From contig JADGPI010000015.1 of the NCBI GenBank assembly GCA_017882525.1, forward strand, positions 1 to 53,232: a stretch of DNA of 53,232 bases. Direction: 5' to 3'. The stretch comes from Thermoleophilia bacterium (lineage in GTDB: Bacteria > Actinomycetota > Thermoleophilia > RBG-16-64-13). Under the pieces are notes generated by a model. It did not search any database, was not told where the DNA came from, and was given only the letters and a program-made list of their open reading frames with translations. A program made the position numbers and the translations under genes. Each line of letters opens with the position of its first letter. Position 1 is the first letter of the stretch. Positions 1,753 to 37,521 of the stretch are shown here, piece by piece.

Positions 1753-3824
1753 ACCTTTTCGGCCACATCTCCGTGGTGCTGCTCGTGCCTGTCTGCCTGG
1801 GCGGGTTCGCGCTGGCCGTCTCCGCGGCGATCTCGCGGCGGCAGGCGCTTGTGCGCGCGGCAGTCTGGGCCTGCTACGCGTCTCTCGTACTTGCGGCACT
1901 GGCATCCATCGCCTTGTTGACGGCTCTGCTCACCCGCGATTTCAGCAACCAGTACGTGTACGAGCACACGTCGCGCGCCTTGTCCATCGCTTACACAGTG
2001 TCTGCGTTCTGGGCGGGAAACGCGGGTTCGCTCCTCCTGTGGGCGCTGCTTTTGGCAGTCTTTTCGGTGATCGCGGTGCGCGCCTGTCGGCGCGAGGACC
2101 CGGCCTCGCTGCCTCACGTGACGTCTATCCTTCTGGCGATCTCCTCCTTCTTCTCTCTTATCCTCGTGTTCACCAGCGCCTCGAATCCTTTCGTGACCAC
2201 CGCCGGTGCGCCGCCTGCTGACGGATACGGACTGAACCCCATGCTGCAGAACCTGGGCATGGTGATACACCCGGTGGCACTGTACGTGGGGTACGTGGGG
2301 TTGGCAATACCGTTCGCCCTCGTGATGGGTGGCTTGATGGCCGGACGTGGCAGCCTCGCATGGGGCCGGTCGGCGCGCCGCTGGACTTTGGTGGCGTGGC
2401 TGTTCTTGACCGTCGGCAACATCGTCGGAGCCTGGTGGGCCTACGTCACTCTCGGTTGGGGTGGTTACTGGGCCTGGGACCCGGTTGAGAACGCGTCTCT
2501 CATGCCTTGGCTCACCAGCACCGCCCTGGTCCACTCGCTGGTCATGATCCGCAAGAGGGATATGCTGAAGATCTGGACCGTGTTCTTGGTCGCGTTCAGC
2601 TTCATCCTTACCATATTCGGCACCTTCCTCACCCGCTCGGGGATAGCCACCTCGGTCCACGCCTTCGGAGACAATTCGTTCATCCCCTGGTTCACGGTGT
2701 TCATCGGCTTGATGGTGCTTTTCTCGCTCTATGTGATCTTGACGAGGCTTCCCATCCTGCGTTCCACGAAGCGCCTCGACCACGTCCTGTCAAGAGAGTC
2801 CAGTTTCGTCTACAACAACATCGTGCTCATGGCCTTGACCATCGCTGTCCTCTGGGGGGTGCTTTTCCCCACTATCGCGGGGGCCATCAAGGGACAGAAG
2901 GTGGAATTGGGCACCGGCTACTACCCCTCAGTGACGGTGCCACTGGGGCTCATACTGATGCTGCTTGCCGGACTGTGCACGCTACTGCTTTGGCGCGGGG
3001 TCTCCTGGTCGCGGCTCGCCCGGGCTGTTGGAGGCACCTTCGGCTTCGCGGTGGTCGTCTTGATCGTATTGGTGGTGTTGGGCGTCAGGCGGCCCTATCC
3101 TTTGATCAGTTTCACGCTGGCTGCGTTCACGGTGGCCTCCGTCGCGCTCCAGTACTGGCGTGGCTGGCGCGAGAGGCGGGCCGCCCGGCGAGCGGACCCG
3201 TTCACCACGTTCGGGCAGATGATCTGGTCCAATCGCCCCCGGTACGGAGGTTTCCTGGTCCACTTCGGGATCATTCTTCTGCTGGTAGGGGTGACCGGCT
3301 CTTATGCGTTCAAGGTGAGCGCGGAGGGGGACGTCTCGAAAGGCGGCAGCCTCACTGTGGGCAGCTACGAACTGGTGTATGACGGTCTCACCACCACACA
3401 GGTCCCCGACAAACAGGTCGCGCGGGCGACGTTCACCCTCGAGAGGTCTGGGAAGGTGGTGGGGATCCTCCAGCCGGTGAAGGAGTACTACCCGGCCAGC
3501 GACCAGACGTGGACGAAGGTGGCACGGCGTAGCACCTTGGCCGGCGACGTATACGTCACCCTACTGGGGTACTCGGAGGACGAGTCGAGCGTTAGCATCC
3601 AAGCGCAGATAAACCCACTGGTGAACTGGCTGTGGATCGGTGGCGCGGTCATGGTCTTGGGGGGCATCATCGCTATTTGGCCTAAGCGTTCGCGACGCGG
3701 GGACCCGAAACAGCCCGAAGCCGGACTCACGGGCGCGGAAGGTTCGGGGAAGGCGCGTCAGCCTCAGAACCGGCGGAAGGGCTCCGCGGGACAGGCGCCA
3801 AGACATCGCGCCAATGCTCGCTGA
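1749..3824 (+). CDS. ccmF: Cytochrome c-type biogenesis protein CcmF (haem lyase/haem handling)
   Basis: Polytopic membrane protein with the WWD motif WGGYWAWDPVENASLMPWL. A TTG at 1749 overlapping the ccmE stop gives MNLFGHISVV, matching the CcmF N-terminus. The alternative GTG at 1689 would overlap ccmE by 64 nt. There is a basic C-terminal tail. Confidence 0.9.
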   Translation: MNLFGHISVVLLVPVCLGGFALAVSAAISRRQALVRAAVWACYASLVLAALASIALLTALLTRDFSNQYVYEHTSRALSIAYTVSAFWAGNAGSLLLWALLLAVFSVIAVRACRREDPASLPHVTSILLAISSFFSLILVFTSASNPFVTTAGAPPADGYGLNPMLQNLGMVIHPVALYVGYVGLAIPFALVMGGLMAGRGSLAWGRSARRWTLVAWLFLTVGNIVGAWWAYVTLGWGGYWAWDPVENASLMPWLTSTALVHSLVMIRKRDMLKIWTVFLVAFSFILTIFGTFLTRSGIATSVHAFGDNSFIPWFTVFIGLMVLFSLYVILTRLPILRSTKRLDHVLSRESSFVYNNIVLMALTIAVLWGVLFPTIAGAIKGQKVELGTGYYPSVTVPLGLILMLLAGLCTLLLWRGVSWSRLARAVGGTFGFAVVVLIVLVVLGVRRPYPLISFTLAAFTVASVALQYWRGWRERRAARRADPFTTFGQMIWSNRPRYGGFLVHFGIILLLVGVTGSYAFKVSAEGDVSKGGSLTVGSYELVYDGLTTTQVPDKQVARATFTLERSGKVVGILQPVKEYYPASDQTWTKVARRSTLAGDVYVTLLGYSEDESSVSIQAQINPLVNWLWIGGAVMVLGGIIAIWPKRSRRGDPKQPEAGLTGAEGSGKARQPQNRRKGSAGQAPRHRANAR

Positions 3825-4554
3825 GATGCATCGCGCCGTCGCGGCGGTCGAGGTGAAGAACCTCTGGAAGGTCTACGGGCACGTCGAAGCCCTCAAGGGG
3901 GTCGACCTGACGGTTGCCGAAGGCAGTTTCCTGACGATCTTCGGTCCGAACGGAGCCGGCAAGACCACGCTCATGAAGGTCCTGGCCACGCTTGCTCGGC
4001 CTACCGATGGCTCCGCGCTGGTGGGGGGACACGACGTCACAAGAGAAGCCGGGGCGGTGCGGAAACGGGTGGGGGTCATCTCGCACAATACGTACCTCTA
4101 CCCTCAGCTCACGGCGATGGAGAACCTAGCCTTCTATGGGCGTATGTACGGTTTGAAGCGGGCACGGGAGCGCTCCACCCAGCTGCTCGAGCAGCTGGGT
4201 CTGGCGACCCGCATGCACGACCGGGTGGCGACTTTCTCTCGTGGGATGCAGCAGCGCCTGTCGGTGGCGCGAGCTCTCTTGCACGAGCCGGAGCTTCTGC
4301 TGCTCGACGAGCCGTATACCGGCCTGGACCAACACGCCAGCCGCATCCTCGCCGGGGTGTTGGAGGGTTTGCGCGATGGACAGCGCACGGTGGTGATGAC
4401 CACGCACAACCTTCAAGAAGGACTAGAGAGTTGCGACAGGGTCGCTATCCTCGTGCGCGGGAAGATGGTGTTTGAAGAGGCGGCGGCGGAAGTCGACCGC
4501 TCGGGCTTTCAAGCGACGTATTTCGCGTGCGTCGAGAGGGCATGGGGCCGGTGA
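3814..4554 (+). CDS. ccmA: Haem exporter ATP-binding protein CcmA
   Basis: Walker A GPNGAGKTT, signature FSRGMQQRL, Walker B LLLLDEP. ATG 3814 overlaps the ccmF stop (alternative ATG at 3826). The position in the ccm cluster supports the call. Confidence 0.85.
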   Translation: MLAEMHRAVAAVEVKNLWKVYGHVEALKGVDLTVAEGSFLTIFGPNGAGKTTLMKVLATLARPTDGSALVGGHDVTREAGAVRKRVGVISHNTYLYPQLTAMENLAFYGRMYGLKRARERSTQLLEQLGLATRMHDRVATFSRGMQQRLSVARALLHEPELLLLDEPYTGLDQHASRILAGVLEGLRDGQRTVVMTTHNLQEGLESCDRVAILVRGKMVFEEAAAEVDRSGFQATYFACVERAWGR

Positions 4555-6957: not shown

Positions 6958-7955
6958 CGGTCCGTCACCAGTTGGATGAAGACGTCTTCCAGTGTCGGTG
7001 TCATCGTGACAAACTCGGTCAGCCGGGCTCCCAGGCCGGCGACCAGAGCCGGCACCATCCGTTGAGCCCGTTCGGGATCGTTCACGAGGATCCGCAGCCC
7101 CCCGCCCTCAGGTGCGATTTCCTTCACCCAGGACTCTCTCTTGAGAGCGGCGGCCAGCTCATTCCTTTCTCCGGCCACTTCCAGGTGGAATACCGGCTTC
7201 GCGTACCTCCCCAGCAGCTCGCCCAGCGGTGCCTCGACCACCAGCCGTCCGTCGCGGACGATGCCGACCCAGCCGCACACTCGCTGCACGTCGTCCAGAA
7301 TATGCGAGGACATCATGATCGTCGCTCGGCCACGCAGGGAGGCAATGAGGTCGAGCACTTCCCGACGGCCGATCGGGTCCAAGGCAGACGCGGGTTCGTC
7401 GAGCAGGAGAACTTCCGGATCGCCCATCAAAGCCTGGGCTATCCCGAGGCGCTGCCGCATCCCTCGGGAAAAGCCTCGGATGCGGTCCTTGGCGCGAGGG
7501 GAGAGGTCGACGGAATCGAGAAGGGCGGCCGCACGTCTTGCGGCCTCGGCCGGGCTCAGGTCGAAAAGCCTTCCTACGAACACAAGGAATTCGTGGGCGG
7601 TCATCCACGGGTAGAACGCTGGTTCCTCGGCCAGGAAGCCCACTCGTCTGCGGAGCTCGAGGCTGAACCGGCCGGGTCTCACCTGCTCTCCGGCCACGAG
7701 TGCCTCACCGGAAGTGGGAGAAAGCAATCCGGCAAGCATCTTGAGGGTTGTAGTCTTGCCTGAACCGTTCGGACCCAGGAAGCCATACACTTCGCCGGTA
7801 GGTACTCGCAGCGAGAGTCCATCCACCGCCCGCACGTGCTTGAAGACGCGAGTGAGGGCTCGCAACTCGATGGTCCACTCGGTGCCCTCCTGGTGGACCG
7901 CGCGGGCCTCTCCCACACTGGCGCCGGTCGCGCCAGTCTCCCCGGCTGCTACCAT
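6954..7955 (-). CDS. ABC transporter ATP-binding protein
   Basis: Walker A GPNGSGKTT, signature FSRGMRQRLGIAQAL, Walker B LLLLDEP, H-loop SSHIL, plus a C-terminal accessory domain. Confidence 0.9.
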   Translation of the reverse strand: MVAAGETGATGASVGEARAVHQEGTEWTIELRALTRVFKHVRAVDGLSLRVPTGEVYGFLGPNGSGKTTTLKMLAGLLSPTSGEALVAGEQVRPGRFSLELRRRVGFLAEEPAFYPWMTAHEFLVFVGRLFDLSPAEAARRAAALLDSVDLSPRAKDRIRGFSRGMRQRLGIAQALMGDPEVLLLDEPASALDPIGRREVLDLIASLRGRATIMMSSHILDDVQRVCGWVGIVRDGRLVVEAPLGELLGRYAKPVFHLEVAGERNELAAALKRESWVKEIAPEGGGLRILVNDPERAQRMVPALVAGLGARLTEFVTMTPTLEDVFIQLVTDR

Positions 7956-9324: not shown

Positions 9325-10809
9325 CTAGCGCCGCTCGTGCTGCTCCGGGATGTACTCTTCGAGAACCGGGAAATCGCGCAACTCCTTGTCGATGGCTGCG
9401 CGCATGAAAGAGTCCACCCACCAGAAGACATCTTGCGACCGGATGTTCTTGCGCAACCGGCGCATCCTGTACCTACGCTCTCCGGCCGACATCCGATAGG
9501 CGTTGAAGATGGCGTCCGCGGTCTGCTCCACGTCGTACGGATTGACCACCAGCGCCGCCCTGCCTAGTTGTGCCGACGCTCCCGCGAACTGGCTGAGGAT
9601 GAGCACCGATTCCTCGTCCAGGCTACACGCGCAGAACTCTTTGCATACGAGGTTCATCCCATCCTTGAGCGGGGTCACCAGGGCGATCTGGGCCGCTCGG
9701 TAGAACGCGAGCAGCTCGTGCGGGGCCAGGCTCCGGAACATGTAGTGCACGGGCACCCAGCCCATTTGGGTGTAGCGGCCGTTTATCTGGCCCACCAGCT
9801 GATCGATCTCCTGTTTTAGGGCGTCATAGCGAGGGATGCCTTCGCGGCTGGGTACTACCACCTGGACGAAGGTTATCCGGCCCCGCGCCTCGGGGAAGCG
9901 CTCCAAGAAGTTGCCGAACGCCCGCAACCGATGAGGGATCCCTTTCGTGTAGTCCAGGCGGTCGATACCCAATACCAACTGTCTATCTCCGAAATGAGCA
10001 AGGATCCGCCGGTATTCACTCTCGACTTCCGGAGAGGCCGCCCGGGTGGCAAAATCGCGGGCGTCGATACCTATGGGGAAAGTACCCACGTGCATCTCGC
10101 GCCCTTCCGTCTGGATCGAATGCAGGTGGCCGTCTGCCTTGACTCGCGCACCCCGCACCATGGTGCGGACACACTGGATGAAGTTCCGCCGGTCCCGGAG
10201 GGTCTGAAACCCAACCAGGTCGTAGGCCAGCAGCGAATCGAGCACGGCCTGGCGTTCTGGCAGATCGAGGAAGATGTCAGGCGGGGGAAAGGGGATATGG
10301 AGGAAAAAGGCCAAGTCTGGGCAGTTCTTGTCCTCGCGCATGTGATGTGCCACGTCGAGGAGCTGGTAGTCGTGTATCCATACGAAGTCGTCAGGGCGGG
10401 CTTCCGCGGCGATCGACTCGGCGAACCGGCGGTTCACCTTCACGTAGGCGGGCCAATACTCAGGGTTGAAGTTGCAGTGAGACGGCAGGTCGTGGAACAG
10501 CGGCCAGACGGTCTCGTTGGAATACCCATTGTAGTAACGATCGTATTCGTCCGGGCTGAGGATGACCGGCTTGAGCGAGTAGCCGGCATCGGTGGCCGCT
10601 TCGTGGAGTATCTGGTTGAGCTGGGGGACGTGCTCGGTGACGCCCGGCCAGCCGATCCACATTCCGCCTCGGTTGCGCAACACGGGGAGCAGGGCCGTCA
10701 CCAGCCCACCGGAACCGGCGGAGAGCTCCCAGCCTTCGTTCTTGCGCTTGAGGACGTACGGCAGCCGATTGGAAACGACGATCAGTCGCTTCATGCCGGC
10801 GCTAGCCAA
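9325..10809 (-). CDS. otsA: Alpha,alpha-trehalose-phosphate synthase (GT20)
   Basis: [41 protein letters not shown] and [13 protein letters not shown] are hallmark GT20/OtsA blocks. Confidence 0.9.
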
Positions 10810-12061
10810 GTTCTATGCGGTCCTCGTTCCCGTGGATGAGCGCTACCATCACGGTGAGGTACTCGCGTAAGTGCCGGGTGATAAGGAAATTCTGGCGAAC
10901 CATCTCTTTCGCGTTCTCCCCGATCTGCTTGATCCGCGGTCGGTTGAACAAGAGGTAGCGGATGCGAAGAGCCGCCCCTTCGGGCGTATCCACGAGAAAG
11001 CCCGTGCGGTGATTGACAAGCTGGAGCCGTATGCCCCCCGTATTGCCGCCGATCACCGGCTTGCTTTTCCACATCGCCTCCGTCACGGTCAGTCCGAAGC
11101 CTTCCCGTAGCGATTTCTGCAGCACGATGTCCGCTCCGGTCTGGAGCGCGTTGATGGTCCGGTCGGTGTAGTGGCCAGAGGCTAGCACATGGATGTCGGG
11201 GTCGCCGGCTGCCGCGTCTCGCACTTCGGAGAGGACGGTCTCGCCCTCAGGGTCGTCGACTGCGCCCCCGCCGGCAAGTACCAGCTGCAGGCTTGGCACG
11301 AAGCGCTTGGCCAGCTGGTAGGCCTCGATTACCCCCAGCGGGTCTTTGAAGCGGTCGAAGCGCGAGACCTGGAGGATCATCGGACGCTGTGGGTCAATAC
11401 CGAACTCCGTCTTCGTTTCCAGGACTCTGCGCGCCGGCAAGGGAAGGTTCTTCTCGCTCAAGGGATCGATGCTGGGGGGGATGAGATACACGGTGTGCGG
11501 CATGGGCTGGGCAAAAGCATCGAGGGAGAAGATGCTCGCGTCGTAAGGATTGATGAACTGGCGAAGGTACTTCCAGATCGGCCGACACGGGTGGCTGACG
11601 TCGATGTGGCACCGCCAGATCCACTTGGCGCCGCATGCCCCGCAGTTTTGCAGTAGAGGTGCGGGTTGCGGATCGTGGACGAAGACGATGTCTGCCGTTT
11701 CGAGTGCCGGGCGGAGCCGCTCCGAGTTGACGCGATTGACCTCCTCGTACACGCGGAGGAGAGAGTCGGGGATGTGCACGGTCTTCCCTTGAAGGCCATT
11801 GTGGAAGGCTTTTGTGCACGCAAAGAAGTCCTCGTTCCCCTCTATCACCTCCCAACTCGCGTCGATCCCCAACTCCTGCATCAAGGGGACCAGCTTCTCC
11901 AGGATCTCGGCCACGCCCCCGCCACGACGGGTGGAGTTGACGTGCACGACTTTCATGCCGTTGAGCAGCCCGGCCAGTTGGCGGAGCTGCTCAACCGCGT
12001 CCAACCCCGCGTGCCTCGCGTACTTATCGAGGAGGTCGGTGCTGGCGATATCCACGGCCAC
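10802..12061 (-). CDS. treT: Trehalose glycosyltransferring synthase TreT-like (GT4)
   Basis: VHVNSTRRGGGVAEIL, WRCHIDVS, PPSIDPLSEKN, QVSRFDRFKDP, DDPEG and LREGFGLTVTEAMWKSKPVIGG closely follow my memory of archaeal/Rubrobacter TreT sequences. Confidence 0.8.
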   Translation of the reverse strand: MAVDIASTDLLDKYARHAGLDAVEQLRQLAGLLNGMKVVHVNSTRRGGGVAEILEKLVPLMQELGIDASWEVIEGNEDFFACTKAFHNGLQGKTVHIPDSLLRVYEEVNRVNSERLRPALETADIVFVHDPQPAPLLQNCGACGAKWIWRCHIDVSHPCRPIWKYLRQFINPYDASIFSLDAFAQPMPHTVYLIPPSIDPLSEKNLPLPARRVLETKTEFGIDPQRPMILQVSRFDRFKDPLGVIEAYQLAKRFVPSLQLVLAGGGAVDDPEGETVLSEVRDAAAGDPDIHVLASGHYTDRTINALQTGADIVLQKSLREGFGLTVTEAMWKSKPVIGGNTGGIRLQLVNHRTGFLVDTPEGAALRIRYLLFNRPRIKQIGENAKEMVRQNFLITRHLREYLTVMVALIHGNEDRIELG

Positions 12062-12063
12062 GA

Positions 12064-12945
12064 TCAGGCCTCACTCTTGCCGTTCGGTGGCGCATCGGCA
12101 GGCGCTTCGCCTGCAACCGTAGCGGCACGGCGCTGCGCCGGCTCTACAGCGCCCGCGCGCTCGGGCGAGTCGACGGAAGCGGGCGCGGCCGTGGCCGGCA
12201 CCACGGTTGTCCGCGATGGCATGCCGAACGGGAGCGACGTCCTCCATGTGTTTCGGCGAGCGTCCGGTGACTGGCCGCCTGGAAATTCCTCGCTTGCTAC
12301 CGCCGGTGCAAAGTAGCTCTCGAAGAGCTGGCTGAGCCGCTCCCGCATGCTATAGAGCGAATCGAAGTAAGGGTCGGACTCCGCCAGAACGCTGCAAAGG
12401 TCCGCGTAGTTCGGCCCGAGCCCGGTGAGCCAGGCCCGAAAATCGTCGACTCCACCTTCTGTGCGCCGGCGGGCGTCGATGAAATGGTAGAAGATGCTCC
12501 CCACCGACATCTTCGGGAGGGCGGCCGCAAGTTCTTCCGGCTGCGCGAGCCGGCGGTGCGTGTCGAATACCACTATGGCGGACCGAACAAAATGGAATTG
12601 CTGATCCGCTCGAGCGAAAAGAACCACTTCTGTTTCGTCAAGCCTCTCATCGATGACCTCGATGATCTCCTGGCGCAGGCCTTCCAGATCAGAAAAGTCC
12701 ATCGGGTCTATAACGGCCAGCCGCTCGGCCATCCGATTGTCGTGCAGACTCGCCGAGGACCAGCTGGCGAAGTCGTTGTTGAACTCGCGGTCCGAGGACT
12801 GGGGGCGCAGCAGGGTGCCCCAGAAGTGGTGGTAGATCGATCCGGGATGGATGTCGCGAAGGATGTTCCGCATCTCGCGCAGCGTTTGCGCACGCCGCCC
12901 GGTGGCGATGTTGGCGAGCGCACAGTCCTTGATCGCGAAATCCAT
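12064..12945 (-). CDS. Conserved hypothetical protein, DUF5752-like, with Ala/Pro-rich C-terminal tail
   Basis: The pattern FAIKDC...SIYHHFW...REFNNDFASW...SIFYHFIDARRR resembles the DUF5752 family that accompanies glycosyltransferase genes. It lies 2 nt upstream of treT. The assignment is from memory, not a search. Confidence 0.55.
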   Translation of the reverse strand: MDFAIKDCALANIATGRRAQTLREMRNILRDIHPGSIYHHFWGTLLRPQSSDREFNNDFASWSSASLHDNRMAERLAVIDPMDFSDLEGLRQEIIEVIDERLDETEVVLFARADQQFHFVRSAIVVFDTHRRLAQPEELAAALPKMSVGSIFYHFIDARRRTEGGVDDFRAWLTGLGPNYADLCSVLAESDPYFDSLYSMRERLSQLFESYFAPAVASEEFPGGQSPDARRNTWRTSLPFGMPSRTTVVPATAAPASVDSPERAGAVEPAQRRAATVAGEAPADAPPNGKSEA

Positions 12946-12999
12946 GCTGATCTCTCCCGCGTCGTCCGGAAATATGCTCTTACCCGCTGTAGAGACCGC

Positions 13000-13836
13000 C
13001 TAACCGCCCGGAGAGCTTTTGCATGCGACAGGCTGGACGAACAGAGCCAGGAAATCCGCGACCTCCCGCGGACCGGGCAGCCAGTAGTTGGCTCGAGTGA
13101 CGGCGCGCGCCTCGCCCACCACGATGGTTGCACCCCATCCATCCACGGCAGCGAACGCGTCCTCGTCTGTGAGATCGTCACCAAGGCAGATCGGGAAAAC
13201 CTCGCCCGGTGCCAAGTCAAGCCTCTCAAGCAGCCACAAAAGCGCTTTCCCCTTGTCCCACTCGGTCGCCGGTCTGAACTCGTACACCAGCTTGCCGGGG
13301 CGGAGACGGATCTCGTCGTAGTGCCCGGCCACCTTCTTCACCGCGGCCTCCACAGTTCCCCGTTGGGAAGGACGTACGAGCCGGTAGTGGACGGCCACCG
13401 AGAAGCCCTTGGACTCGATGATGAGTCCTTCGATACGCGCCAGTTGCTGTTGGAGCTCCTGGGCGGCGGCGGAGAGCGCGGCGCGAAACTCGCACCCGAG
13501 TCTCAAGTGGATCGGTGAGCCCCACGGTCCTTCCACCTCATGGCCGTGATTGGCGGCATAGTAGACGCTGTCGAGGCCCACGAGTCCGCGGAGGTCATCG
13601 AGACCTCGTCCGGATAGGACGCATACGAGGTGACGCTCCGCGAGCGATGCCAGCAGGGCCCGGGCGTCCTCTGGCATCACGGCGAGTTCCGGCCTCATCG
13701 TCAACCCCACGAGAGTGCCGTCGTAGTCCACAAAGAACGTGAGATCGCGGCCCGATCCCTGCTCAACGATGTCTTCAAAGTGCTCGAGTGCCGAAGGAAG
13801 TCCGGGCCTATCCATTTGTCTGCAGTTCCGATTCAC
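13000..13836 (-). CDS. otsB: Trehalose-phosphate phosphatase (HAD-IIB)
   Basis: HAD motifs FFVDYDGTL, LSGRG and GDDLTDEDAF. Size and context match OtsB. The start is GTG 13836 or ATG 13815. Confidence 0.85.
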   Translation of the reverse strand: MNRNCRQMDRPGLPSALEHFEDIVEQGSGRDLTFFVDYDGTLVGLTMRPELAVMPEDARALLASLAERHLVCVLSGRGLDDLRGLVGLDSVYYAANHGHEVEGPWGSPIHLRLGCEFRAALSAAAQELQQQLARIEGLIIESKGFSVAVHYRLVRPSQRGTVEAAVKKVAGHYDEIRLRPGKLVYEFRPATEWDKGKALLWLLERLDLAPGEVFPICLGDDLTDEDAFAAVDGWGATIVVGEARAVTRANYWLPGPREVADFLALFVQPVACKSSPGG

Positions 13837-14206
13837 CTGCGGCGCTCCGCGTGAGCCTTATCGCGCGCTCCGCGGACCGCCGTGCGGATACGCCGCTCAG
13901 GATGCTCGCAAGATCGCAGTACACCGTCCTTCTCCTCCCTGACCGCCGTGCCACGCACTGAGTTCTCGTCGAACTGTACCCGTCGCCACTGGTAATAATG
14001 TCATTGAGGAGACACGGCCCTTCATGGGACCGAAAGGAAAGCACTGGCCTCTCGCAGGCGAATATTCTCCAAAATTATCGGGTATTATGGGCGCGCATCG
14101 ATAGGACAGCTCTCAAGGCGACGTGCAGAGTGCTTCATCAATGTCCGTTCGTCCGCAAGTGCATCCGAACGCATGCGGTCCTGTCCCTTAGTCAGTGGAG
14201 GATTTG

Positions 14207-14614
14207 ATGAGCACGGCAAGACTGTACGTGGGTAATCTGTCCTACGGCACCACCAAAGAGACGCTGGAGAAGGCTTTCGCGGCGCACGGCGAAGTGGTGT
14301 CCGTCAACCTCATCACCGACCGTCAGACCGGGCGTCCCAAGGGTTTCGCATTTGTTGAGATGTCCACCCCCGAAGAGGGAGAGGCGGCGAAGGCCGCACT
14401 CAACGGCACTGACTTGGATGGCCGCGCCATCAATGTGGATAGCGCTCGGGAGCAAGAGCAGCGCAAGCCTGGCGGCTTCGGCGGGAGTCGTGGTGGCGGC
14501 TATGGTGGCGGCGGCGGCTATGGTGGTGGCGGCGGCAGCCGTAGCGGCGGCGGCAGTTACGGCGGCGGTGGCCGCGGCGGCGGTGGCGGCCGGGAGGGTG
14601 GCTCCCGCTGGTAG
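14207..14614 (+). CDS. RRM-type RNA-binding protein with glycine-rich (RGG/YGG) tail
   Basis: GGAGG lies 6 nt before ATG 14207. RNP2 is LYVGNL and RNP1 is KGFAFVEM. The C-terminal ~55 aa are Gly/Arg/Tyr/Ser repeats. Confidence 0.9.
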   Translation: MSTARLYVGNLSYGTTKETLEKAFAAHGEVVSVNLITDRQTGRPKGFAFVEMSTPEEGEAAKAALNGTDLDGRAINVDSAREQEQRKPGGFGGSRGGGYGGGGGYGGGGGSRSGGGSYGGGGRGGGGGREGGSRW

Positions 14615-14669
14615 TTTGCGGTGACGAGGGTCGACCGCTTTGAGCGGGGGAGATACCTGATGATCGTAC

Positions 14670-14700
14670 AAGGCGCCGGCATGTCCGGCGCCTTTTGTTT
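14670..14700 (+). terminator. Intrinsic terminator of the RRM gene
   Basis: AAGGCGCCGG (14670-14679) pairs with CCGGCGCCTT (14685-14694), with loop CATGT and a following U-tract TTTTGTTT. Confidence 0.8.
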
Positions 14701-14789
14701 GGGGCCACTCGACGCCGGGTAGCCCGGAAGTATCGGGTCTGTGGTAAAGGCCGCGCTTAGGCGCACCCAAAAGACGGGAGGGATCGCTG

Positions 14790-15011
14790 GTGGCTGAGAT
14801 CAAACTGGACGTGCGTGGGGAGACCTGCCCCGTGCCGCTCGTGGAGGTGCGGAAAGCTCTCAGGCAGGCGACTCCGGGAGACATCGTCGAAGTGGTGGGC
14901 ACGCACCCCTCGTCCAAGAAAGAGATCCCCCTGGCGATCAAGGCATTGAAGCTCGAGTTGCTCAGCGTCGAGGAGGAGGGTGGCACGTGGAAGATCAGGA
15001 TACAGCGATGA
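14790..15011 (+). CDS. TusA/SirA-like sulfur carrier protein
   Basis: 73 aa with a GTG start after GGGAGGG. The motif LDVRGETCPVPLVEVRKAL carries the CPxP active-site cysteine. Confidence 0.85.
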   Translation: MAEIKLDVRGETCPVPLVEVRKALRQATPGDIVEVVGTHPSSKKEIPLAIKALKLELLSVEEEGGTWKIRIQR

Positions 15012-15442
15012 CCGGATCGATCGACGCCGAGAAGATCACCCTTGTCGTGCACAGCGGTGATTTCGACAAGATCTACAGCGCATTCATCATCGGCAACGGG
15101 GCCCTCGCCATGGGCATGGAAGCATCGATGTACTTCACTTTCTGGGGCCTCCTGCGGCTCAAGAAAGGGCAGTTGGACCGTGGTCAGCTTTCCAAGATGC
15201 ACATGCTTGGCTTGGGCAAATGGATGGTCAAGAAACGCATGAAGAAGAGCCGGGTGGTGTCGCTTGAACGCTTGGCCCAGGACTTCAAGGCTCTCGGTGG
15301 CAAGATCTTCGCGTGTGACATGACCATGGATATCATGGGGGTCGGACCAGACGACCTCCGTCAGGATCTCATTACGGAATATTGCTCGGTAGGCACCTAT
15401 ATCGAGGAAGCTCGCCACTCCACTGTGACATTGTTCATTTAG
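15008..15442 (+). CDS. DsrE/DsrF/DsrH-like (DrsE_2-type) sulfur relay protein
   Basis: ATGA overlap with the tusA-like stop. KITLVVHSGDFDKIYSAFIIGNGALAMGMEASMYFTFWGL and KIFACDMTMDIMG match the PF13686-type family with its conserved Cys. Confidence 0.8.
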   Translation: MTGSIDAEKITLVVHSGDFDKIYSAFIIGNGALAMGMEASMYFTFWGLLRLKKGQLDRGQLSKMHMLGLGKWMVKKRMKKSRVVSLERLAQDFKALGGKIFACDMTMDIMGVGPDDLRQDLITEYCSVGTYIEEARHSTVTLFI

Positions 15443-15450
15443 GGGGTCCC

Positions 15451-16620
15451 ATGTTCGGCGAGACCGTTTATCTCGACAACGCAGCCGCGACCCGGTTGGA
15501 CGAGCGGGTTCTCGAGGCCATGAAGCCATATCTCTTCGATACTTATGCTGTGGCCACGTCGGAGTTTGGCTACTCCATGGGGATCGAGGCACGTGAAGCA
15601 TTGGACAGGGCGCGTGCTTCGCTGGCCGCCAGGCTGGGAGGAGGGGCAGAGGAGTTTATCTTCACATCCGGCAGCACTGAGTCCAGCAACATGGCTCTTA
15701 AAGGCGTCGCCTTGGCCCTGGGGGAGAAGAAGGGCAGGCACCTGATCACGTCGCGCATCGAGGACTTCCCGGTGCTCAACACGGCGGCCACGCTTGGCAA
15801 ACAGGGTTTCAAGGTCACCGTGCTGGACGTGGACGCGGACGGGTTGGTGGATCCGAGCGCCGTGGAGAAGGCCATATCCTCGGATACGGTAGTGGTGTCG
15901 ATCCAGCATGCCAATCAGGAGATCGGGACGGTGCAGGACATCGCAAGCATCGCCGAGATTTGTCGGGCCAAGGGGACCCTGTTCCACACAGATGCCACGC
16001 ACAGCTTTCCCAGGCTGCCTCTTGACGTGAGTAAGATCCCGGCTGACCTCGTGACAGTGGCGGCGCATGCCATCCACGGTCCCAAAGGGATGGGCGGCCT
16101 TTACCTCCGCTCCGGGACTCCGCTCGGCAAATGGATGGACGGAGGATTCCAGGAGTTCAATCGGCGGGCCGGCGTGGAAGACATCGCCGGAGCGGTAGGA
16201 TTCGCCACTGCAGCCGAGCTGATCACCGACGAAGAGACCGCGCGGCTCCGCGCCCTTCGCGACCGGCTCCTCGATCGCGTCCTGGGCGAGATCCCGTACA
16301 CGACGCTGAACGGCCATCGGACCCGCCGGCTGCCGCAAAATGCCAACGTCACTTTTCACTACGTGGAGGGTGAGTCCATCACCTTGCAGTTGGACATGCG
16401 CGGGTTCGCGGTGAGTACCGGATCGGCGTGCTTCAGTAAGTCTCTCGAGGCGAGCCACGTGATCCTGGGAATCGGAGGAGACCACGAGCGGGCACACGGC
16501 TCCGTACGTTTCTCCCTCGGGCGCTACAACACCCAGGAAGACGTCGATGGAGTGGTGGACGCGATTGCCGAAGTGGTGGGTGAGCTGCGAGCCATCAGCC
16601 CGCTTACCCCGGATCACTAA
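15451..16620 (+). CDS. Class V aminotransferase-fold IscS/NifS homologue lacking the PLP-binding lysine
   Basis: YLDNAA, GSTESSN, HANQEIGTV, HTDATH, HGPKGMGGLYLR and the STGSACFS cysteine loop align along the whole length with IscS/NifS. The SxHK lysine position reads AAHA (Ala207). Confidence 0.85.
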   Translation: MFGETVYLDNAAATRLDERVLEAMKPYLFDTYAVATSEFGYSMGIEAREALDRARASLAARLGGGAEEFIFTSGSTESSNMALKGVALALGEKKGRHLITSRIEDFPVLNTAATLGKQGFKVTVLDVDADGLVDPSAVEKAISSDTVVVSIQHANQEIGTVQDIASIAEICRAKGTLFHTDATHSFPRLPLDVSKIPADLVTVAAHAIHGPKGMGGLYLRSGTPLGKWMDGGFQEFNRRAGVEDIAGAVGFATAAELITDEETARLRALRDRLLDRVLGEIPYTTLNGHRTRRLPQNANVTFHYVEGESITLQLDMRGFAVSTGSACFSKSLEASHVILGIGGDHERAHGSVRFSLGRYNTQEDVDGVVDAIAEVVGELRAISPLTPDH

Positions 16621-16634
16621 GGAGGCCGAGGAAT

Positions 16635-17270
16635 ATGGCGTTTCCGTATAACGAGAAGGTGTTGGAGCACTTTCGGCATCCGCAGAACGTGGGCAAGATC
16701 GAAGATGCGGACGGCAAAGCCACCGAGGGGAGCCCGGCCTGCGGCGACATGGTGGCCGTCTACATCAAGGTCGATCCTGAGACGAAGGTGCTGAACGACG
16801 TGAAGTTCGAGTCCTACGGGTGCGCCTCCAACATCGCTACCGGATCGATCATCACCCAACTGGCGAAGGGCAAGACGCTGTCCGATGCCAAGAAGATCAC
16901 CTGGAAGCAAGCGTCCGACGAGCTGGGCGGTTTGCCGGCGATCAAGGCCCACTGCTCGGTGCTGGCCGTGGAAGGCTTGAGGGCCGCGATCCGTGACTAC
17001 GAAGAGAGACACGGACTGGTCACCGAGCGGGAACCCACGACAGAAGCCGTGATCAAACGCCGCCTCCGCCACGTGATGAATCCCCTCCGTGGCTTGGACG
17101 TGGTCCGCACGGATCTCATCAAGGAGATCGAGGTCAAAGACGGCGTAGTGCGGATCGTGGCCGATCTGGCTGCGGATCACCAGTTCGCTCCTGTCATCAA
17201 GGCCGACATCGCCGAGAAGATCGAGTCGCTCTGGGACGTCAAACAGGTGGTCATCGAGTTCGTGGGGTAG
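16635..17270 (+). CDS. iscU: IscU/NifU-N Fe-S scaffold fused to a C-terminal DUF59 (MIP18/SufT-like) domain
   Basis: The N-terminal ~125 aa carry the three scaffold Cys (SPACGD, YGCASNIA, KAHCSVLA). The C-terminal ~80 aa (VMNPLRGLDVVRTDLIKEIEV...VVRIVADL...) look like DUF59. Confidence 0.85.
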   Translation: MAFPYNEKVLEHFRHPQNVGKIEDADGKATEGSPACGDMVAVYIKVDPETKVLNDVKFESYGCASNIATGSIITQLAKGKTLSDAKKITWKQASDELGGLPAIKAHCSVLAVEGLRAAIRDYEERHGLVTEREPTTEAVIKRRLRHVMNPLRGLDVVRTDLIKEIEVKDGVVRIVADLAADHQFAPVIKADIAEKIESLWDVKQVVIEFVG

Positions 17271-17336
17271 ATACGGCCAAGGATTCCCGGACGCGCCCAC
17301 CCGGAGTTCGCGCAGACGTGGCGAGGCGCTAAACGA

Positions 17337-18611
17337 TCAGGGAACCACTTGGCCGGCGGTTGAAGCATCCGCGAACGCCACGCCTGTCAGCCGTGCCACC
17401 AGGGCCGCATCGGCGGGCGAGATGGCGTGCAGAGCGGCGATGAAAGGCGTCGATCCGCCGGCCTCAAGGTCAAAGAGGTGCGCGGTCTGAAATCCCAGCA
17501 AACCCCCCGCCGAGTCGTACAAAGCCACGCCGACGTCGATCAGGCTGACATCGCGGCCGGAGTCGTTCGTAACTTCGCCCGCGGCCGCGTAACCCACGTG
17601 CGCATCCAGGCGTCCGCCAAGTTCCGTCACCGGCAGGCGAAGATCGGGAGAGCCCACGGGTAGCCCATGTACCGTAAGCCGGACGGTGGTCGTGGCGACA
17701 CCGCCTGGCGCGACAGTGTTTTCTAATCCGACGTATGCCGCTTCCCCGGGGGCTAGCACTCGCGGTACGAACTCCAGTACGCCCCTATCCCACAGGACAG
17801 AGCCCTGCGCATTCAGCCCAGAAGCAGTAGCGTAAAGCTCTACCACAGCGTTACCTCTGTTCTCGACCCGGGCTGCGTAATGCTGGGTGGTCACTCCATT
17901 GGCCTGGAGGGGCTGCCAACTCGATAGATGCTCGTCGGTGATCGAGAGTAACTGCAACGAGTCAGACGCGTACCTGAGGGAGATAAGGTTGTAGAGGAGT
18001 GCCGCGACTTCGCCTCGGGTTATGGGATCGGCCGGATGGTCCTTGGTGGCGGACCATTCGAGGCCGTCGAGCAGCCCTGCATATTGTGCCCGGTCTGCCC
18101 ACGGCGCATGGACTGTGTCGAACGCGCCGAAGACAGACGTCACGCCGGGGGGAGGCTGGTCCGTGAGCGCGACCGCGGACCGGGAGACCATGGTTATCGC
18201 TTGGGCTATGGTTATGTTCCGCAAAGGTGCGAACGTCGTGGCATCGACGCCTTGGGTGATCCCGTTATCTGCTGCCGCGGCCACGTAGTGATACGGGTAC
18301 AGACTGTCGGGGTCGTTGGTCACGTCGGTGAAGGCGGAAATGCTTGTGTCGCTCACCGGCAGGGCCAATGTCAGCACGATCATCTTGGCGAATTGCTGGC
18401 GGCTTATGAACTGGTTCGGCCCGAAGCTGCCGTCCTGAAACCCCTCGACGATGTGGGACGCGGCGAGCGCCTCGACCTTGGACTGATAGGGGTAGTCGTC
18501 ACCGACATCGGGAAACGGTCCGGCCAGCGCGGGAGCTGCCCAAGCCGTGAGCAGCAGCGTTATGGCCGCAAGAACAAGCCCGGTCGTCTTGAATATCCGT
18601 CTTGCTTCCAC
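17337..18611 (-). CDS. Secreted S-layer-homology (SLH) domain protein
   Basis: Signal peptide ending APALA. SLH repeats (FPDVGDDYPYQSKVEALAASHIVEGF...; FTDVTN...YHYVAAAADNGITQGV...) are followed by an unassigned beta-rich C-terminal domain. Confidence 0.8.
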   Translation of the reverse strand: MEARRIFKTTGLVLAAITLLLTAWAAPALAGPFPDVGDDYPYQSKVEALAASHIVEGFQDGSFGPNQFISRQQFAKMIVLTLALPVSDTSISAFTDVTNDPDSLYPYHYVAAAADNGITQGVDATTFAPLRNITIAQAITMVSRSAVALTDQPPPGVTSVFGAFDTVHAPWADRAQYAGLLDGLEWSATKDHPADPITRGEVAALLYNLISLRYASDSLQLLSITDEHLSSWQPLQANGVTTQHYAARVENRGNAVVELYATASGLNAQGSVLWDRGVLEFVPRVLAPGEAAYVGLENTVAPGGVATTTVRLTVHGLPVGSPDLRLPVTELGGRLDAHVGYAAAGEVTNDSGRDVSLIDVGVALYDSAGGLLGFQTAHLFDLEAGGSTPFIAALHAISPADAALVARLTGVAFADASTAGQVVP

Positions 18612-35562: not shown

Positions 35563-37521
35563 ATGCCAGACTGGGAATCGCTGCTCGAACCGATCAAGAT
35601 CGGGTCGCTCAGTGCCAAGAACCGGGTCGAGGCCGCACCGACGCTCCCCTGCCTCGCCAATACCGACGGATCAGTGTCCACGGAGTTGGTGGATTACTAC
35701 GCCGCGAAAGCAAGGGGTGGAGCGGGCATCGTCACCGTTGGCGAGAGCGCTGTCGACGCGGACTACGCCATCACCCACGGCGGCCAGCTCATCATCGACC
35801 ACGAGCGCAAGATACCCGGCCTTTCCAGACTTGCGGAGACGATAAAGCGGTACGGCGCCCTCGCCTCTCTGGAGTTGTGTCACGGTGGCCGTCAGACCAT
35901 GCCGAACCTGATCGGTGACCGGCCCCCGATCGGTCCTTCCCCGGGATCGAGCAAGCTACATGAGCTGCTCCTCGGTCGCAAGATCGAGACTCAGGAGATG
36001 ACCTCGGAGATGATCGGGCAGGTGATACAGAACTTCGCCTCCGCGGCGTTCCGGCTAAAGCAAGCAGGTTTCGACATGTGCCTGGTCCACGGCGGCCATG
36101 GGTGGCTTCTGGGCCAGTTCCTTTCACCGCTCACGAATCTGCGCACCGACGAGTACGGGGGCAGTCTCGAGAACCGGAGCCGGTTTCCCAGACAGGTGCT
36201 CGAGGCCATCCGGGAGAAGTGCGGGCCAGAATTTGGGATAGAGCTCCGTTTCAGCGGGGAGGAACTGGTTCCCGGTGGCCTACAAGCCGACGAGGCCATG
36301 CAGTTTGCGCGGCTGGTGGAAGACTGTGTGGATTGTTTCCAGGTGAGTTGCGGCATGATGGGTGAGCCCGGCACGATCCCCTACGTCCATCCGGCGTTCT
36401 TCCTTCCCCGGGGCCGGAACGTGCACCTTGCGGCTAGGCTCAAGCAGTCGGTGAGCAAGCCGGTCACCGCGTTGGGCGCGATAATGGACTTCGACCAGGC
36501 CGAAGCGATCGTCGCCGGCGGCGAGGCAGACATGGTGGCGATGGCCCGGCCACTTATGGCGGACCCGGCGTTGCCGTCCAAGAGTATCCATGGCCGCAAA
36601 GACCAGGTCATCCCCTGCATCCGCTGCAACGAATGTCTGGCTCGGGTGGCGCACTTCATCCCCGTGCGCTGCGCGGTCAACCCGCTCACCGGCATGGAGA
36701 CCGAGTATCGGCTCGTCCCTCCGGCGACTCGCAAGAAGAAGGTCGTGGTGGTCGGTGGGGGACCGGGCGGGATGGAGGCGGCGTTGATAGCGGCATCTCG
36801 AGGGCATTCCGTGGTGCTGTTCGAGCGCGACGAAAAGCTGGGCGGCAACTTGTGGGTGGCTTCACAGCCGCCGTTCAAGGACGACATGAAACTCTTTCTC
36901 TCATACTTGGAGCGGCAGATGGACGCCTCCTCGGTGGACGTGCGGCTAGGAGCGGAAGCCGATGCCTCACTCGTGTCAGGAGAGGTGCCCGATGAGTTGG
37001 TCCTGGCGGTGGGCGCGGAACCGTTGCGCCCGGGAATCCCGGGGCTGGATGCTGCCGGCGTGCTTTGGGCGGGCGACGTGTTCGCCGGCGCGGTGATCGC
37101 CGGCAAGACGGTGGTCGTCGCCGGCGGCGGCGGAGTGGGCTGCGAGACCGCGCTCTACCTGAGCCATCAAGGCAAGAAGGTAGTGGTGGTCGAGATGCTT
37201 GACGAGCCGGCGTTGGATTACAACTTCGCGAATCGCAGTCTTCTCCTCGAACTGCTGGCGAGCCACAACGTGGACATCCGGACGGGCTGTAAGTTGGAGG
37301 CTGTGAAGACGGGACGCGTAGTGGTGAGCGGCCCAGGCGGGAAGGAAAGCGAGATCGTTACCGACGCCGTGGTCCATTCTCTGGGGATGGCTCCTCGCAC
37401 GGCGATAGTGGACCAATTGAAGGGCCTGGCCCTCGACGTCCACGTCATCGGGGACTGCCGGTCGCCGCGGCTCATCATCGACGCCGTTCACGAAGGCTTC
37501 CACGCAGCTATAGAGATGTAG
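35563..37521 (+). CDS. NADH:flavin oxidoreductase (OYE TIM barrel) fused to FAD/NAD(P)-binding domain, 2,4-dienoyl-CoA reductase-like
   Basis: The N-terminal OYE blocks are KNRVEAAP, GGAGIVTVGE, HGGHGWLLGQFLSP and RTDEYGGSLENR. The Fe-S Cys motif is CIRCNEC...C. The dinucleotide motifs are VVVVGGGPGGMEAA and VVVAGGGGVGCE. Confidence 0.9.
   Translation: MPDWESLLEPIKIGSLSAKNRVEAAPTLPCLANTDGSVSTELVDYYAAKARGGAGIVTVGESAVDADYAITHGGQLIIDHERKIPGLSRLAETIKRYGALASLELCHGGRQTMPNLIGDRPPIGPSPGSSKLHELLLGRKIETQEMTSEMIGQVIQNFASAAFRLKQAGFDMCLVHGGHGWLLGQFLSPLTNLRTDEYGGSLENRSRFPRQVLEAIREKCGPEFGIELRFSGEELVPGGLQADEAMQFARLVEDCVDCFQVSCGMMGEPGTIPYVHPAFFLPRGRNVHLAARLKQSVSKPVTALGAIMDFDQAEAIVAGGEADMVAMARPLMADPALPSKSIHGRKDQVIPCIRCNECLARVAHFIPVRCAVNPLTGMETEYRLVPPATRKKKVVVVGGGPGGMEAALIAASRGHSVVLFERDEKLGGNLWVASQPPFKDDMKLFLSYLERQMDASSVDVRLGAEADASLVSGEVPDELVLAVGAEPLRPGIPGLDAAGVLWAGDVFAGAVIAGKTVVVAGGGGVGCETALYLSHQGKKVVVVEMLDEPALDYNFANRSLLLELLASHNVDIRTGCKLEAVKTGRVVVSGPGGKESEIVTDAVVHSLGMAPRTAIVDQLKGLALDVHVIGDCRSPRLIIDAVHEGFHAAIEM

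Follow-up and report, generated by a model that had tools for sequence, protein, structure and literature searches.

A cassette of TusA, a DsrE2B-like protein, a lysine-less IscS homologue and IscU-DUF59 suggests a cysteine-independent sulfur route to iron-sulfur assembly

The operon and its four products

We analyzed a stretch of 53,232 nucleotides from a Thermoleophilia bacterium (GenBank assembly GCA_017882525.1, contig JADGPI010000015.1, positions 1-53,232), referred to here as the window, in which an operon of four genes lies on the + strand at positions 14790-17270. The first gene, tusA (14790-15011), has a GTG start and encodes 73 aa (PF01206; E = 1.3e-22). It is followed by a gene for a DsrE2B-like protein of 144 aa (15008-15442; PF13686 DrsE_2, E = 4.7e-33), by a gene for an IscS-like protein of 389 aa (15451-16620; PF00266, E = 1e-67) and by iscU-DUF59 (16635-17270; 211 aa), all on the + strand. 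The last encodes a fusion of an IscU scaffold domain (16635-17024, residues 1-130; PF01592, E = 1.4e-41) with a C-terminal DUF59 (FeS_assembly_P) domain (17046-17270; PF01883, E = 3e-11, residues 138-205). The IscS-like protein lacks the lysine that binds pyridoxal 5′-phosphate (PLP), and we name it IscS*. A sequence-only reading of this stretch had placed four open reading frames (ORFs) here with gaps of −4, 8 and 14 nt, all of which we confirmed. At the −4 gap, the ATG of the DsrE-like gene overlaps the tusA stop codon (ATGA); some gene callers choose an alternative GTG start for this gene at 14987.

On its 5′ side, the operon is bounded by the intrinsic terminator of the upstream RRM-protein gene (14670-14704, + strand). 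This terminator has a 10-bp stem with eight G-C pairs (14670-14694), followed by TTTTGTTT, and the hairpin and T-tract are kept in most of six aligned actinobacterial relatives. On the 3′ side, a gene for an SLH-domain protein (17337-18611) is convergent to the operon, so that the strong upstream terminator and the convergent downstream gene claimed earlier are both present. No terminator-like site was found on the + strand within the operon. The tight gaps and the lack of such an internal site support the single-transcription-unit structure that had been proposed, and we regard the four genes as one operon on these sequence features. The leader (14705-14789, + strand) contains a GGGTA motif (14717-14721), invariant in an alignment of seven actinobacterial upstream regions, and a ribosome-binding site, GGGAGGG (14776-14782). 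We take it to be a putative promoter region; no match to the sigma-70 consensus was found in it. A riboswitch or leader RNA was also considered and set aside, as Rfam gave just a sub-threshold sroD match on the terminator hairpin.

The TusA protein scores 79.9 bits against PF01206 (cut-off, 28.6), in keeping with the two-layer α/β TusA family. Its Cys13, in a CPVP sequence of the CPxP type (codon 14826-14828), is conserved in 97% of 76 sequences, and Arg21 and Arg25, which correspond to Arg27 and Arg31 of Escherichia coli TusA, are also conserved; the dN/dS of tusA relative to locus L014 is 0.07. The protein falls below the NCBIfam equivalogs for E. coli TusA (39 versus 78 bits) and YedF (47 versus 79). 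Because YedF is nevertheless its top NCBIfam match (E = 1.4e-12), the cassette could be imagined to handle selenium instead of sulfur. The long form of YedF scores still further from its threshold (29 versus 110), neither selD nor any other selenium gene is a conserved neighbor, and no selenium role is known for an IscU scaffold. We consider the selenium explanation very improbable and reject it on the score cut-offs.

The DsrE-like protein carries Cys103 in the sequence FACDMTMD (codon 15314-15316), and this residue is 100% conserved in 77 sequences. Its nearest solved relatives are 2QS7 (E = 1.8e-17) and 3PNX, the former having been named DsrE2B (PMC11094781). It scores 59.8 against the NCBIfam DsrE2 model (NF047629; cut-off, 210) and is thus outside that equivalog.

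In the IscU domain, the ligand residues Cys36, Asp38, Cys63, His106 and Cys107 are intact in the window; the three cysteines and His106 are 100% conserved in 74 sequences, and Asp38 is kept. NCBIfam models of the IscU/NifU type score 117-150 bits against it, compared with 62 bits for SufU, which is below the cut-off of 92.5, and the best PDB match is Archaeoglobus fulgidus IscU (4eb5_C; E = 6.5e-39). With an IscS-fold gene adjoining an IscU-fold gene whose product has three cysteines, the aspartate and the histidine, the pair resembles those of the ISC and minimal IscS-IscU (MIS) systems. DUF59 is the domain of SufT, and many DUF59/SufT-like members carry a conserved cysteine. The fused DUF59 domain has no cysteine in the window and no conserved cysteine column among the 74 sequences. 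It matches NCBIfam SufT weakly (E = 0.0045), and pairwise alignment with a stand-alone, cysteine-containing DUF59 protein is too weak to place the missing residue. A single-sequence AF2 model of IscU-DUF59 was poor (pLDDT 62) and was set aside. The residues singled out by the earlier reading, namely, TusA Cys13, the DsrE-like Cys103, Cys327 of the IscS-like protein and the IscU ligands, are all in place.

Conservation of the cassette and linkage of lysine-less IscS to sulfur carriers

Scanning one genome per GTDB species, we found relatives of IscS* in 328 species genomes. The best 80 loci, together with two found earlier, gave 81 distinct loci for analysis. The order tusA, DsrE-like gene, iscS*, iscU-DUF59 in the same orientation is present in 70 of the 81, and six end at contig boundaries and agree as far as their sequence runs. 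One Anaerolineae locus (L016) has all of the cassette genes in rearranged form, with a ferritin gene (7215-7700) between IscS* and IscU-DUF59 and with the TusA and DsrE-like genes moved downstream. The IscU-DUF59 fusion is present at every locus that extends that far, and the median gaps across about 75 loci are 0, 12 and 17 nt. The same gene order in 70 of 81 independent loci of other genomes is far beyond chance, and the operon of the window is a conserved cassette, not a local oddity.

The bacterial hosts belong to the Actinomycetota, the Dehalococcoidia and Anaerolineae (Chloroflexota), the Syntrophales and the Clostridia, along with one metagenome-assembled genome (MAG) of the Nitrospiraceae (Nitrospirota). 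Those closest to the window are Actinomycetota (RBG_16_64_13-like, Thermoleophilia-labelled MAGs). Five archaeal lineages are represented: Methanothrix/Methanocrinis, Methanomassiliicoccaceae, Methanobacteriaceae, Methanofastidiosa and Methanolobus. IscS* is 69-90% identical across these two domains of life, and among 1.84 billion representatives of 50%-identity clusters it forms one full-length representative (558 bits), beyond which full-length matches fall to at most 396 bits and at most 53% identity. In a neighbor-joining tree of IscS*, taxa fall into their own clades and the archaeal groups are not monophyletic, which is consistent with several transfers between phyla and between domains. 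Plasmid carriage was examined as a transfer route and discarded, since PLSDB contains no IscS* (the top match is 42.5% identical). A four-gene cassette that is 60-90% identical among Actinomycetota, Chloroflexota, Syntrophales and several archaeal orders is an unusual evolutionary pattern.

All-against-all clustering of ORFs from the 81 loci yielded no fifth conserved gene. After the four genes, with their shadow ORFs, come clusters that are lineage specific and cover at most 10 loci each, and the genes flanking the cassette vary by lineage.

This conservation bears on whether IscS* does anything at all. A decaying, nonfunctional paralogue is one option that was raised for IscS1 of Methanosarcina acetivorans, which lacks the PLP-binding residues, was suggested to be either nonfunctional or similar to A. 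fulgidus IscS, and was not consistently detected in proteomes (Deere et al. 2020; PMC7585200). The identity of 69-90% across two domains within a single 50% cluster, the 100% conservation of Cys327 and many pocket residues, the dN/dS of about 0.05 (0.03-0.08 for all four genes relative to the nearest relative), which shows purifying selection, and the lack of frameshifts in the 81 loci effectively refute decay, which can hardly be the explanation.

Aligned with canonical desulfurases, including E. coli IscS, the window protein has Ala207 (codon 16069-16071) at the position of the PLP Schiff-base lysine, with the motif AAHAIHGPKG in place of canonical SxHKxYGPKG. Two further PLP-site residues are changed: His104 of E. 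coli, which stacks on the PLP ring, is Asp105 (15763-15765), and Gln183, which contacts O3′ of PLP, is His184 (16000-16002). His206 and Ala207 lie together at 16066-16071, and the loop cysteine, Cys327 in GSAC (codon 16429-16431), is retained. IscS* scores under every NCBIfam desulfurase cut-off (the highest is NifS, 427 versus 531), and its best PDB match is A. fulgidus IscS (4eb5; E = 1e-100). Foldseek places an AF2 model of IscS* (pLDDT 71) among class I desulfurases. The Cys327 loop has the long IscS-type length by alignment and is of low confidence, i.e., flexible, in the model.

These substitutions are fixed across the family. In all 84 IscS* members, the E. coli His104 position is Asp, the Gln183 position is His and Cys327 is kept; the Lys206 position is Thr in 82, Ala in one (the window) and Ser in one. 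Asp180, His205 and Arg354, the last of which binds the substrate carboxylate, are 100% conserved and Thr76 is 98% conserved among 82 sequences (E. coli numbering). All of the 120 closest database relatives of IscS* (74-100% identity) lack the lysine, and five canonical IscS paralogues encoded a few kilobases away in Dehalococcoidales loci retain the His, Gln and Lys. The loss of PLP chemistry predicted earlier is supported by sequence. The accompanying suggestion that the protein serves only as an adaptor fits poorly with residues fixed to Asp, His and Thr around a fully retained Asp180, His205 and Arg354. Together with Thr76, this pattern suggests that the pocket still binds something and that IscS* has been remodelled rather than decayed.

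One way to account for such a pocket is that IscS* is still a sulfur-mobilizing enzyme, with noncovalently held PLP or another ligand, and that TusA and the DsrE2B-like protein take over its sulfur for delivery to thio-cofactors, tRNA or the molybdenum cofactor, with IscU as a second acceptor. The retained pocket residues speak for this, among them Arg354, which a second lysine-less family (the N-D type, described below) has lost, and in E. coli the flow does run from IscS to TusA and on to a DsrE-family complex. Enzymes of the class-V aminotransferase fold, however, need the lysine as a catalytic base as well as for the Schiff base, and in all 84 members the lysine is gone and the PLP-stacking histidine is an aspartate. 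No acceptor of the TusE, MnmA, MoaD or ThiI type is conserved near the cassette in the 81 loci, and the naturally lysine-less IscS of A. fulgidus is reported to be inactive (PMC7585200). We consider an active enzyme rather unlikely.

The earlier reading had proposed looking across genomes for tusA and dsrE-like genes in the neighborhood of lysine-less IscS homologues, and the outcome is strongly positive. Of 74 informative IscS* loci, 71 encode TusA upstream. As a control, we searched 80 metagenomic canonical iscS loci, in 71 of which the HK motif was detected, with hidden Markov models (HMMs) derived from TusA and DsrE proteins of the cassette, and these models found no TusA or DsrE gene near canonical iscS in any of the 80. 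The same TusA HMM recovers all five divergent TusA proteins in the N-D loci, and IscU was found in 32 of the 80 control loci. E. coli and the iscSU2 and iscSU3 loci of M. acetivorans agree with the control in having no such neighbors. When 76 of 80 informative lysine-less loci are compared with 0 of 56 canonical loci that have enough upstream sequence, Fisher's exact test, uncorrected for phylogeny, gives P of ~7e-34, a value that overstates independence because shared ancestry inflates co-occurrence statistics.

The linkage is not limited to the IscS* family. Among the nearest 150 representatives of IscS clusters (P0122-P0270), about 20 lack the PLP lysine and show at least 10 different active-site signatures, which indicates that lysine loss is recurrent. 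Among these other signatures, gene context was covered for the N-D type alone (six loci). This is the largest group, and A. fulgidus IscS2, which has been solved in complex with IscU, is one of its members; His104 is kept, Gln183 is replaced by Ala, His205 by Asn and Lys206 by Asp, and Arg354 is lost. The window protein does not belong to it, since its signature is D-H-H-A as opposed to H-A-N-D in 237 N-D sequences. At 51-56% identity to canonical IscS and 44-48% to IscS*, the N-D type is nearer to canonical IscS and thus represents an independent lineage. A TusA and/or DsrE-family gene is nonetheless directly upstream in six of six N-D loci: the order is ferredoxin-TusA-IscS in two loci of Thermoplasmatota, TusA-IscS-IscU in two others and TusA-DsrE-IscS in a fifth, and the sixth is that of A. 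fulgidus. In the last (L172; AE000782.1, 2379-6958), a DsrE-family ORF with the active-site cysteine ends 10 nt before IscS2, and IscU comes next. The upstream sequence encodes FeoB fragments and a DtxR-like C-terminal domain, and after IscU there is an unannotated ORF of 112 aa. No TusA gene was found within 5 kb of IscS2, and a DsrE gene without TusA at this locus shows that either carrier can adjoin a lysine-less IscS. The linkage thus generalizes beyond IscS* and spans two independent families and more than 10 order-level lineages.

Other neighbors were less telling. FdhD occurs near lysine-less IscS in three lineages but also in 10 of the 80 canonical control loci, and we dropped it as unspecific. 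In one Dehalococcoidales locus (L003, 10712-14888, − strand), a canonical Rrf2-CysK-CysE-NIL-IscS-IscU set and the cassette are no more than 2 kb apart; FdhD separates them, and HcyBio and Thi4 are upstream. In the two Thermoplasmatota loci (L087, 4450-9241; L088, 4342-9711), the ferredoxin-TusA-IscS genes of the N-D type sit beside a radical-SAM gene, two GcvH-like genes and an LplA-like ligase gene, and lysine-less IscS may be tied to lipoate metabolism there.

Sulfur flow through the cassette and its genomic surroundings

From the sequences and gene context, we propose that the cassette is a PLP- and cysteine-independent Fe-S assembly module of the MIS type, fed by a TusA/DsrE persulfide relay, a reading that we judge to be slightly on the probable side. 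The DsrE2B-like protein (at Cys103) and TusA (at Cys13) would carry sulfane sulfur as cysteine persulfide. The sulfur would come from outside the cassette, candidate sources being sulfide or polysulfide chemistry, a rhodanese or a canonical desulfurase encoded elsewhere in the genome. TusA would bind the IscS* dimer in a way similar to that seen for TusA and IscS of E. coli and would pass its sulfur to Cys327 on the long mobile loop, the reverse of the IscS-to-TusA direction in E. coli; we infer the direction of flow, from TusA/DsrE to IscS/IscU. Without the Schiff-base lysine and the PLP-stacking histidine, IscS* itself would be unable to make persulfide from cysteine. It may bind IscU in the fashion of the (IscS-IscU)2 complex of A. 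fulgidus and deliver sulfur to the nascent [2Fe-2S] cluster, supply the fourth cysteine ligand, or both, and the cysteine-free DUF59 domain fused to IscU may assist the hand-off of the cluster to client or carrier proteins.

Direct docking is supported by the interface residues. In the E. coli IscS-TusA structure, salt bridges join TusA Arg27 to IscS Glu49 and TusA Arg31 to IscS Asp52 (PMC2854127). Glu49 is 97% conserved in IscS* compared with 25% in canonical IscS, and position 52 is Asp or Glu in 86%; with the conserved Arg21 and Arg25 of the cassette TusA, these residues favor a direct TusA-IscS* contact.

Several observations weigh against the proposed relay, in addition to the shared ancestry that inflates the co-occurrence statistics. 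The Glu49 argument fails for the N-D family, in which Lys, Asn or Gln predominates at position 49. The cassette has no gene for a reductant or for an obvious supplier of sulfane sulfur, and making persulfide from sulfide requires an oxidant. The DsrE2B gene is missing from an actinobacterial locus that keeps TusA (L082), which hints that TusA is the proximal partner, and at three Anaerolineae loci (L012, L019 and L035) IscS* has no partner within 6 kb. In the genomes where this could be checked, those of Dehalococcoidales and M. acetivorans, canonical IscS-IscU coexists with the cassette, which would make the cassette an accessory and not the sole system. M. acetivorans IscS1 formed inclusion bodies in E. 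coli and was not purified, and only IscS2 and IscU2 were consistently found in proteomes (PMC7585200). Finally, a simple relay leaves unexplained the fixed Asp, His and Thr and the retained Asp180, Thr76, His205 and Arg354.

That last point could be met by supposing that the former PLP pocket has been rebuilt into a new site, comprising (in window numbering) Asp105, His184, Thr/Ala207, the retained Asp181, His206 and Arg353, and the mobile Cys327, and that it holds Fe(II), sulfide or persulfide, or a non-PLP ligand. The cassette would then assemble Fe-S clusters as a self-contained line that needs no free cysteine and supplies sulfur and possibly iron. This extension is unlikely as matters stand. 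If true, it would amount to a sixth kind of front end for prokaryotic Fe-S biogenesis, spread horizontally within methanogenic consortia, and the general TusA/DsrE linkage would explain the sulfur supply of the “inactive” A. fulgidus IscS.

An iron or Fe-S role for the cassette, perhaps linked to stress, fits the ferritin gene in L016, rubrerythrin genes at nine loci, FeoB and the DtxR-like domain in A. fulgidus, and small ferredoxins. These neighbors also bear on a different possibility, namely, that the cassette is a sulfane-sulfur trafficking or detoxification module in which the IscU-like domain receives sulfur as SufU does and IscS* is the hub for docking. Dissimilatory sulfur relays are the best-known setting of TusA and DsrE proteins, the hosts come, judging by organism names, from sulfidic anoxic habitats, and SufU shows that an IscU fold can turn into a sulfurtransferase. 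The scaffold domain, however, scores about twice as high with IscU/NifU models as with SufU and keeps Asp38, His106 and three cysteines, and all complete loci join it to a DUF59 Fe-S assembly domain. Ferritin and FeoB neighbors point to iron, and the 81 loci show no conserved Dsr, sHdr, Sox or SQR neighbors. We regard sulfur trafficking as quite improbable and the persulfide-fed assembly module as the better account.

Some neighbors of the cassette recur within single lineages. At six Dehalococcoidales loci, a gene of the Asp/Glu/hydantoin-racemase family (~220 aa; PF01177) lies between IscS* and IscU (L010, at 3335-4000, and L015, L017, L022, L038 and L061, the last with two copies). The rubrerythrin gene is directly upstream of tusA on the same strand in L056 (3879-4382) and eight other Dehalococcoidia loci, all of one clade. 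Around the three partnerless Anaerolineae genes, translations inspected by eye, with no Pfam scan, resemble nitroreductases, Crp/Fnr regulators, rubrerythrins, small ferredoxins and a fusion of ferredoxin-thioredoxin reductase with rubredoxin; L019 also has a stand-alone DUF59 gene with a cysteine.

In the window, the gene directly upstream of the cassette (14195-14614, + strand) encodes a glycine-rich RRM_1 RNA-binding protein and is syntenic in actinobacterial relatives. Farther upstream is a trehalose synthesis cluster (9325-13836, − strand; Glyco_transf_20, TreT_GT1, DUF5752 and trehalose phosphatase), also syntenic in L001. Antisense ORFs of 469, 392 and 227 aa cover the operon on the − strand (14192-15601, 15439-16617 and 16617-17300). 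Their counterparts recur as shadow ORFs at other loci, and they are most likely noncoding products of high G+C content. No further Fe-S biogenesis genes were found in the scanned parts of the 53-kb window. Genes for a corrinoid-binding protein (38682-39341, + strand), a B12-binding radical-SAM enzyme (45754-47151, + strand) and an OYE/pyridine-nucleotide-disulfide flavoprotein (35563-37521, + strand) would suit an anaerobic host lifestyle.

Comparison with known systems

Where methanogens and other strict anaerobes obtain sulfur for Fe-S clusters is an open question that the cassette addresses. Several of these organisms lack an active cysteine desulfurase, and according to recent reviews, no sulfurtransferase is known for the SMS system and MIS has “no carrier.” TusA and DsrE are unmentioned in the reviews and primary papers on MIS and SMS, and we found no interpretation of their linkage to lysine-less IscS in a literature search that left out Garcia et al. 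2022 and subscription reviews. Lysine-less IscS homologues comprise at least two large, strongly conserved families, one including the crystallized A. fulgidus protein, each with a genetic link to TusA/DsrE persulfide carriers. That sulfur reaches an IscU scaffold independently of cysteine becomes a testable hypothesis, for which M. acetivorans (MA0807-MA0810) offers a tractable host.

The closest described counterpart is the isc1 cluster of that archaeon, MA0810-MA0807, drawn as iscSU1 with “genes of unknown function” in Fig. S1 of Deere et al. 2020, whose legend gives MA0810 as SirA-like, MA0809 as DrsE superfamily, MA0808 as IscS1 and MA0807 as a 24.2-kDa IscU1 (PMC7585200). The same four genes are present, the printed IscS1 sequence shows the family signature (IEDF, TATHSF, AHTIHGPRG and STGSACFS), and IscU1 is long enough for a DUF59 extension. 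SirA/TusA and DrsE neighbors occur at lysine-less iscSU1 only and are absent at iscSU2 and iscSU3. The window operon is thus an orthologue of isc1. The arrangement, which the earlier reading placed outside the textbook ISC, SUF and NIF systems, is not entirely without record: the cluster had already been drawn, but its TusA/DsrE link was left uninterpreted and neither its cross-domain spread nor its fixed active-site signature was reported there (PMC7585200).

For IscS* itself, the nearest model is A. fulgidus IscS, which, according to PMC7585200 and PMC13066941, lacks the lysine and desulfurase activity, yet furnishes a ligating cysteine for the [2Fe-2S] cluster on IscU. In the (IscS-IscU)2 complex (PDB 4EB5, 4EB7 and 4HVK), Asp199 naturally replaces the PLP lysine and the loop cysteine is kept, as in IscS*. 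With Cys327 present in 100% of members and IscU adjacent, cluster ligation by IscS* is predicted by analogy. The A. fulgidus protein belongs to the other lineage (44-48% identical to IscS*), and its IscU has no DUF59 domain.

The TusA side of the cassette resembles the E. coli IscS-TusA-TusBCD-TusE-MnmA relay (3LVJ), which likewise joins an IscS fold, a CPxP TusA and a DsrE-family protein; the contact residues Glu49, Asp52 and Arg55 of IscS and Arg27 and Arg31 of TusA are conserved in the cassette pair. In E. coli, however, sulfur is drawn from cysteine by PLP chemistry and moves outward to tRNA, whereas the cassette lacks the PLP lysine, TusE and MnmA, has a single DsrE2B-like chain in place of TusBCD and includes an IscU scaffold in the operon, which sets it apart from a Tus relay. 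Dissimilatory relays (Rhd-TusA-DsrEFH-DsrC, sHdr with TusA/DsrE3, and DsrE2B of 2QS7) also combine TusA with a DsrE carrier that has a conserved cysteine. The cassette differs from them in having no Dsr or sHdr genes and in its Fe-S scaffold partner, and its hosts are fermenters, syntrophs and methanogens.

SUF, in which SufS and SufE or SufU feed SufBCD with the aid of SufT, likewise has a dedicated sulfur relay to a scaffold and a DUF59 factor, but all parts except DUF59 differ in fold, and SUF begins from a PLP desulfurase. Nor does the IscU domain look like a zinc sulfurtransferase of the SufU type, as IscU models outscore SufU and His106, which gives way to Lys or another residue in SufU, is kept before the third cysteine.

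The MIS system was reportedly defined by Garcia et al. 2022. The cassette shares with it a two-gene core of IscS-like and IscU-like proteins without HscAB, Fdx, IscA or IscR. In PMC13066941 and PMC12192291, MIS (MisS-MisU) is described as pairing a scaffold with a cysteine desulfurase that is active and as having “no carrier.” By sequence, the cassette lacks the PLP-dependent desulfurase of MIS and ISC, its Lys, His and Gln being replaced by Ala, Asp and His, and it adds two sulfur carriers and DUF59. The comparison suggests that the cassette is a system of the MIS type in which a persulfide relay forms the front end and IscS is remodelled and PLP-less, an arrangement that would constitute an undescribed, cysteine-independent sulfur route.

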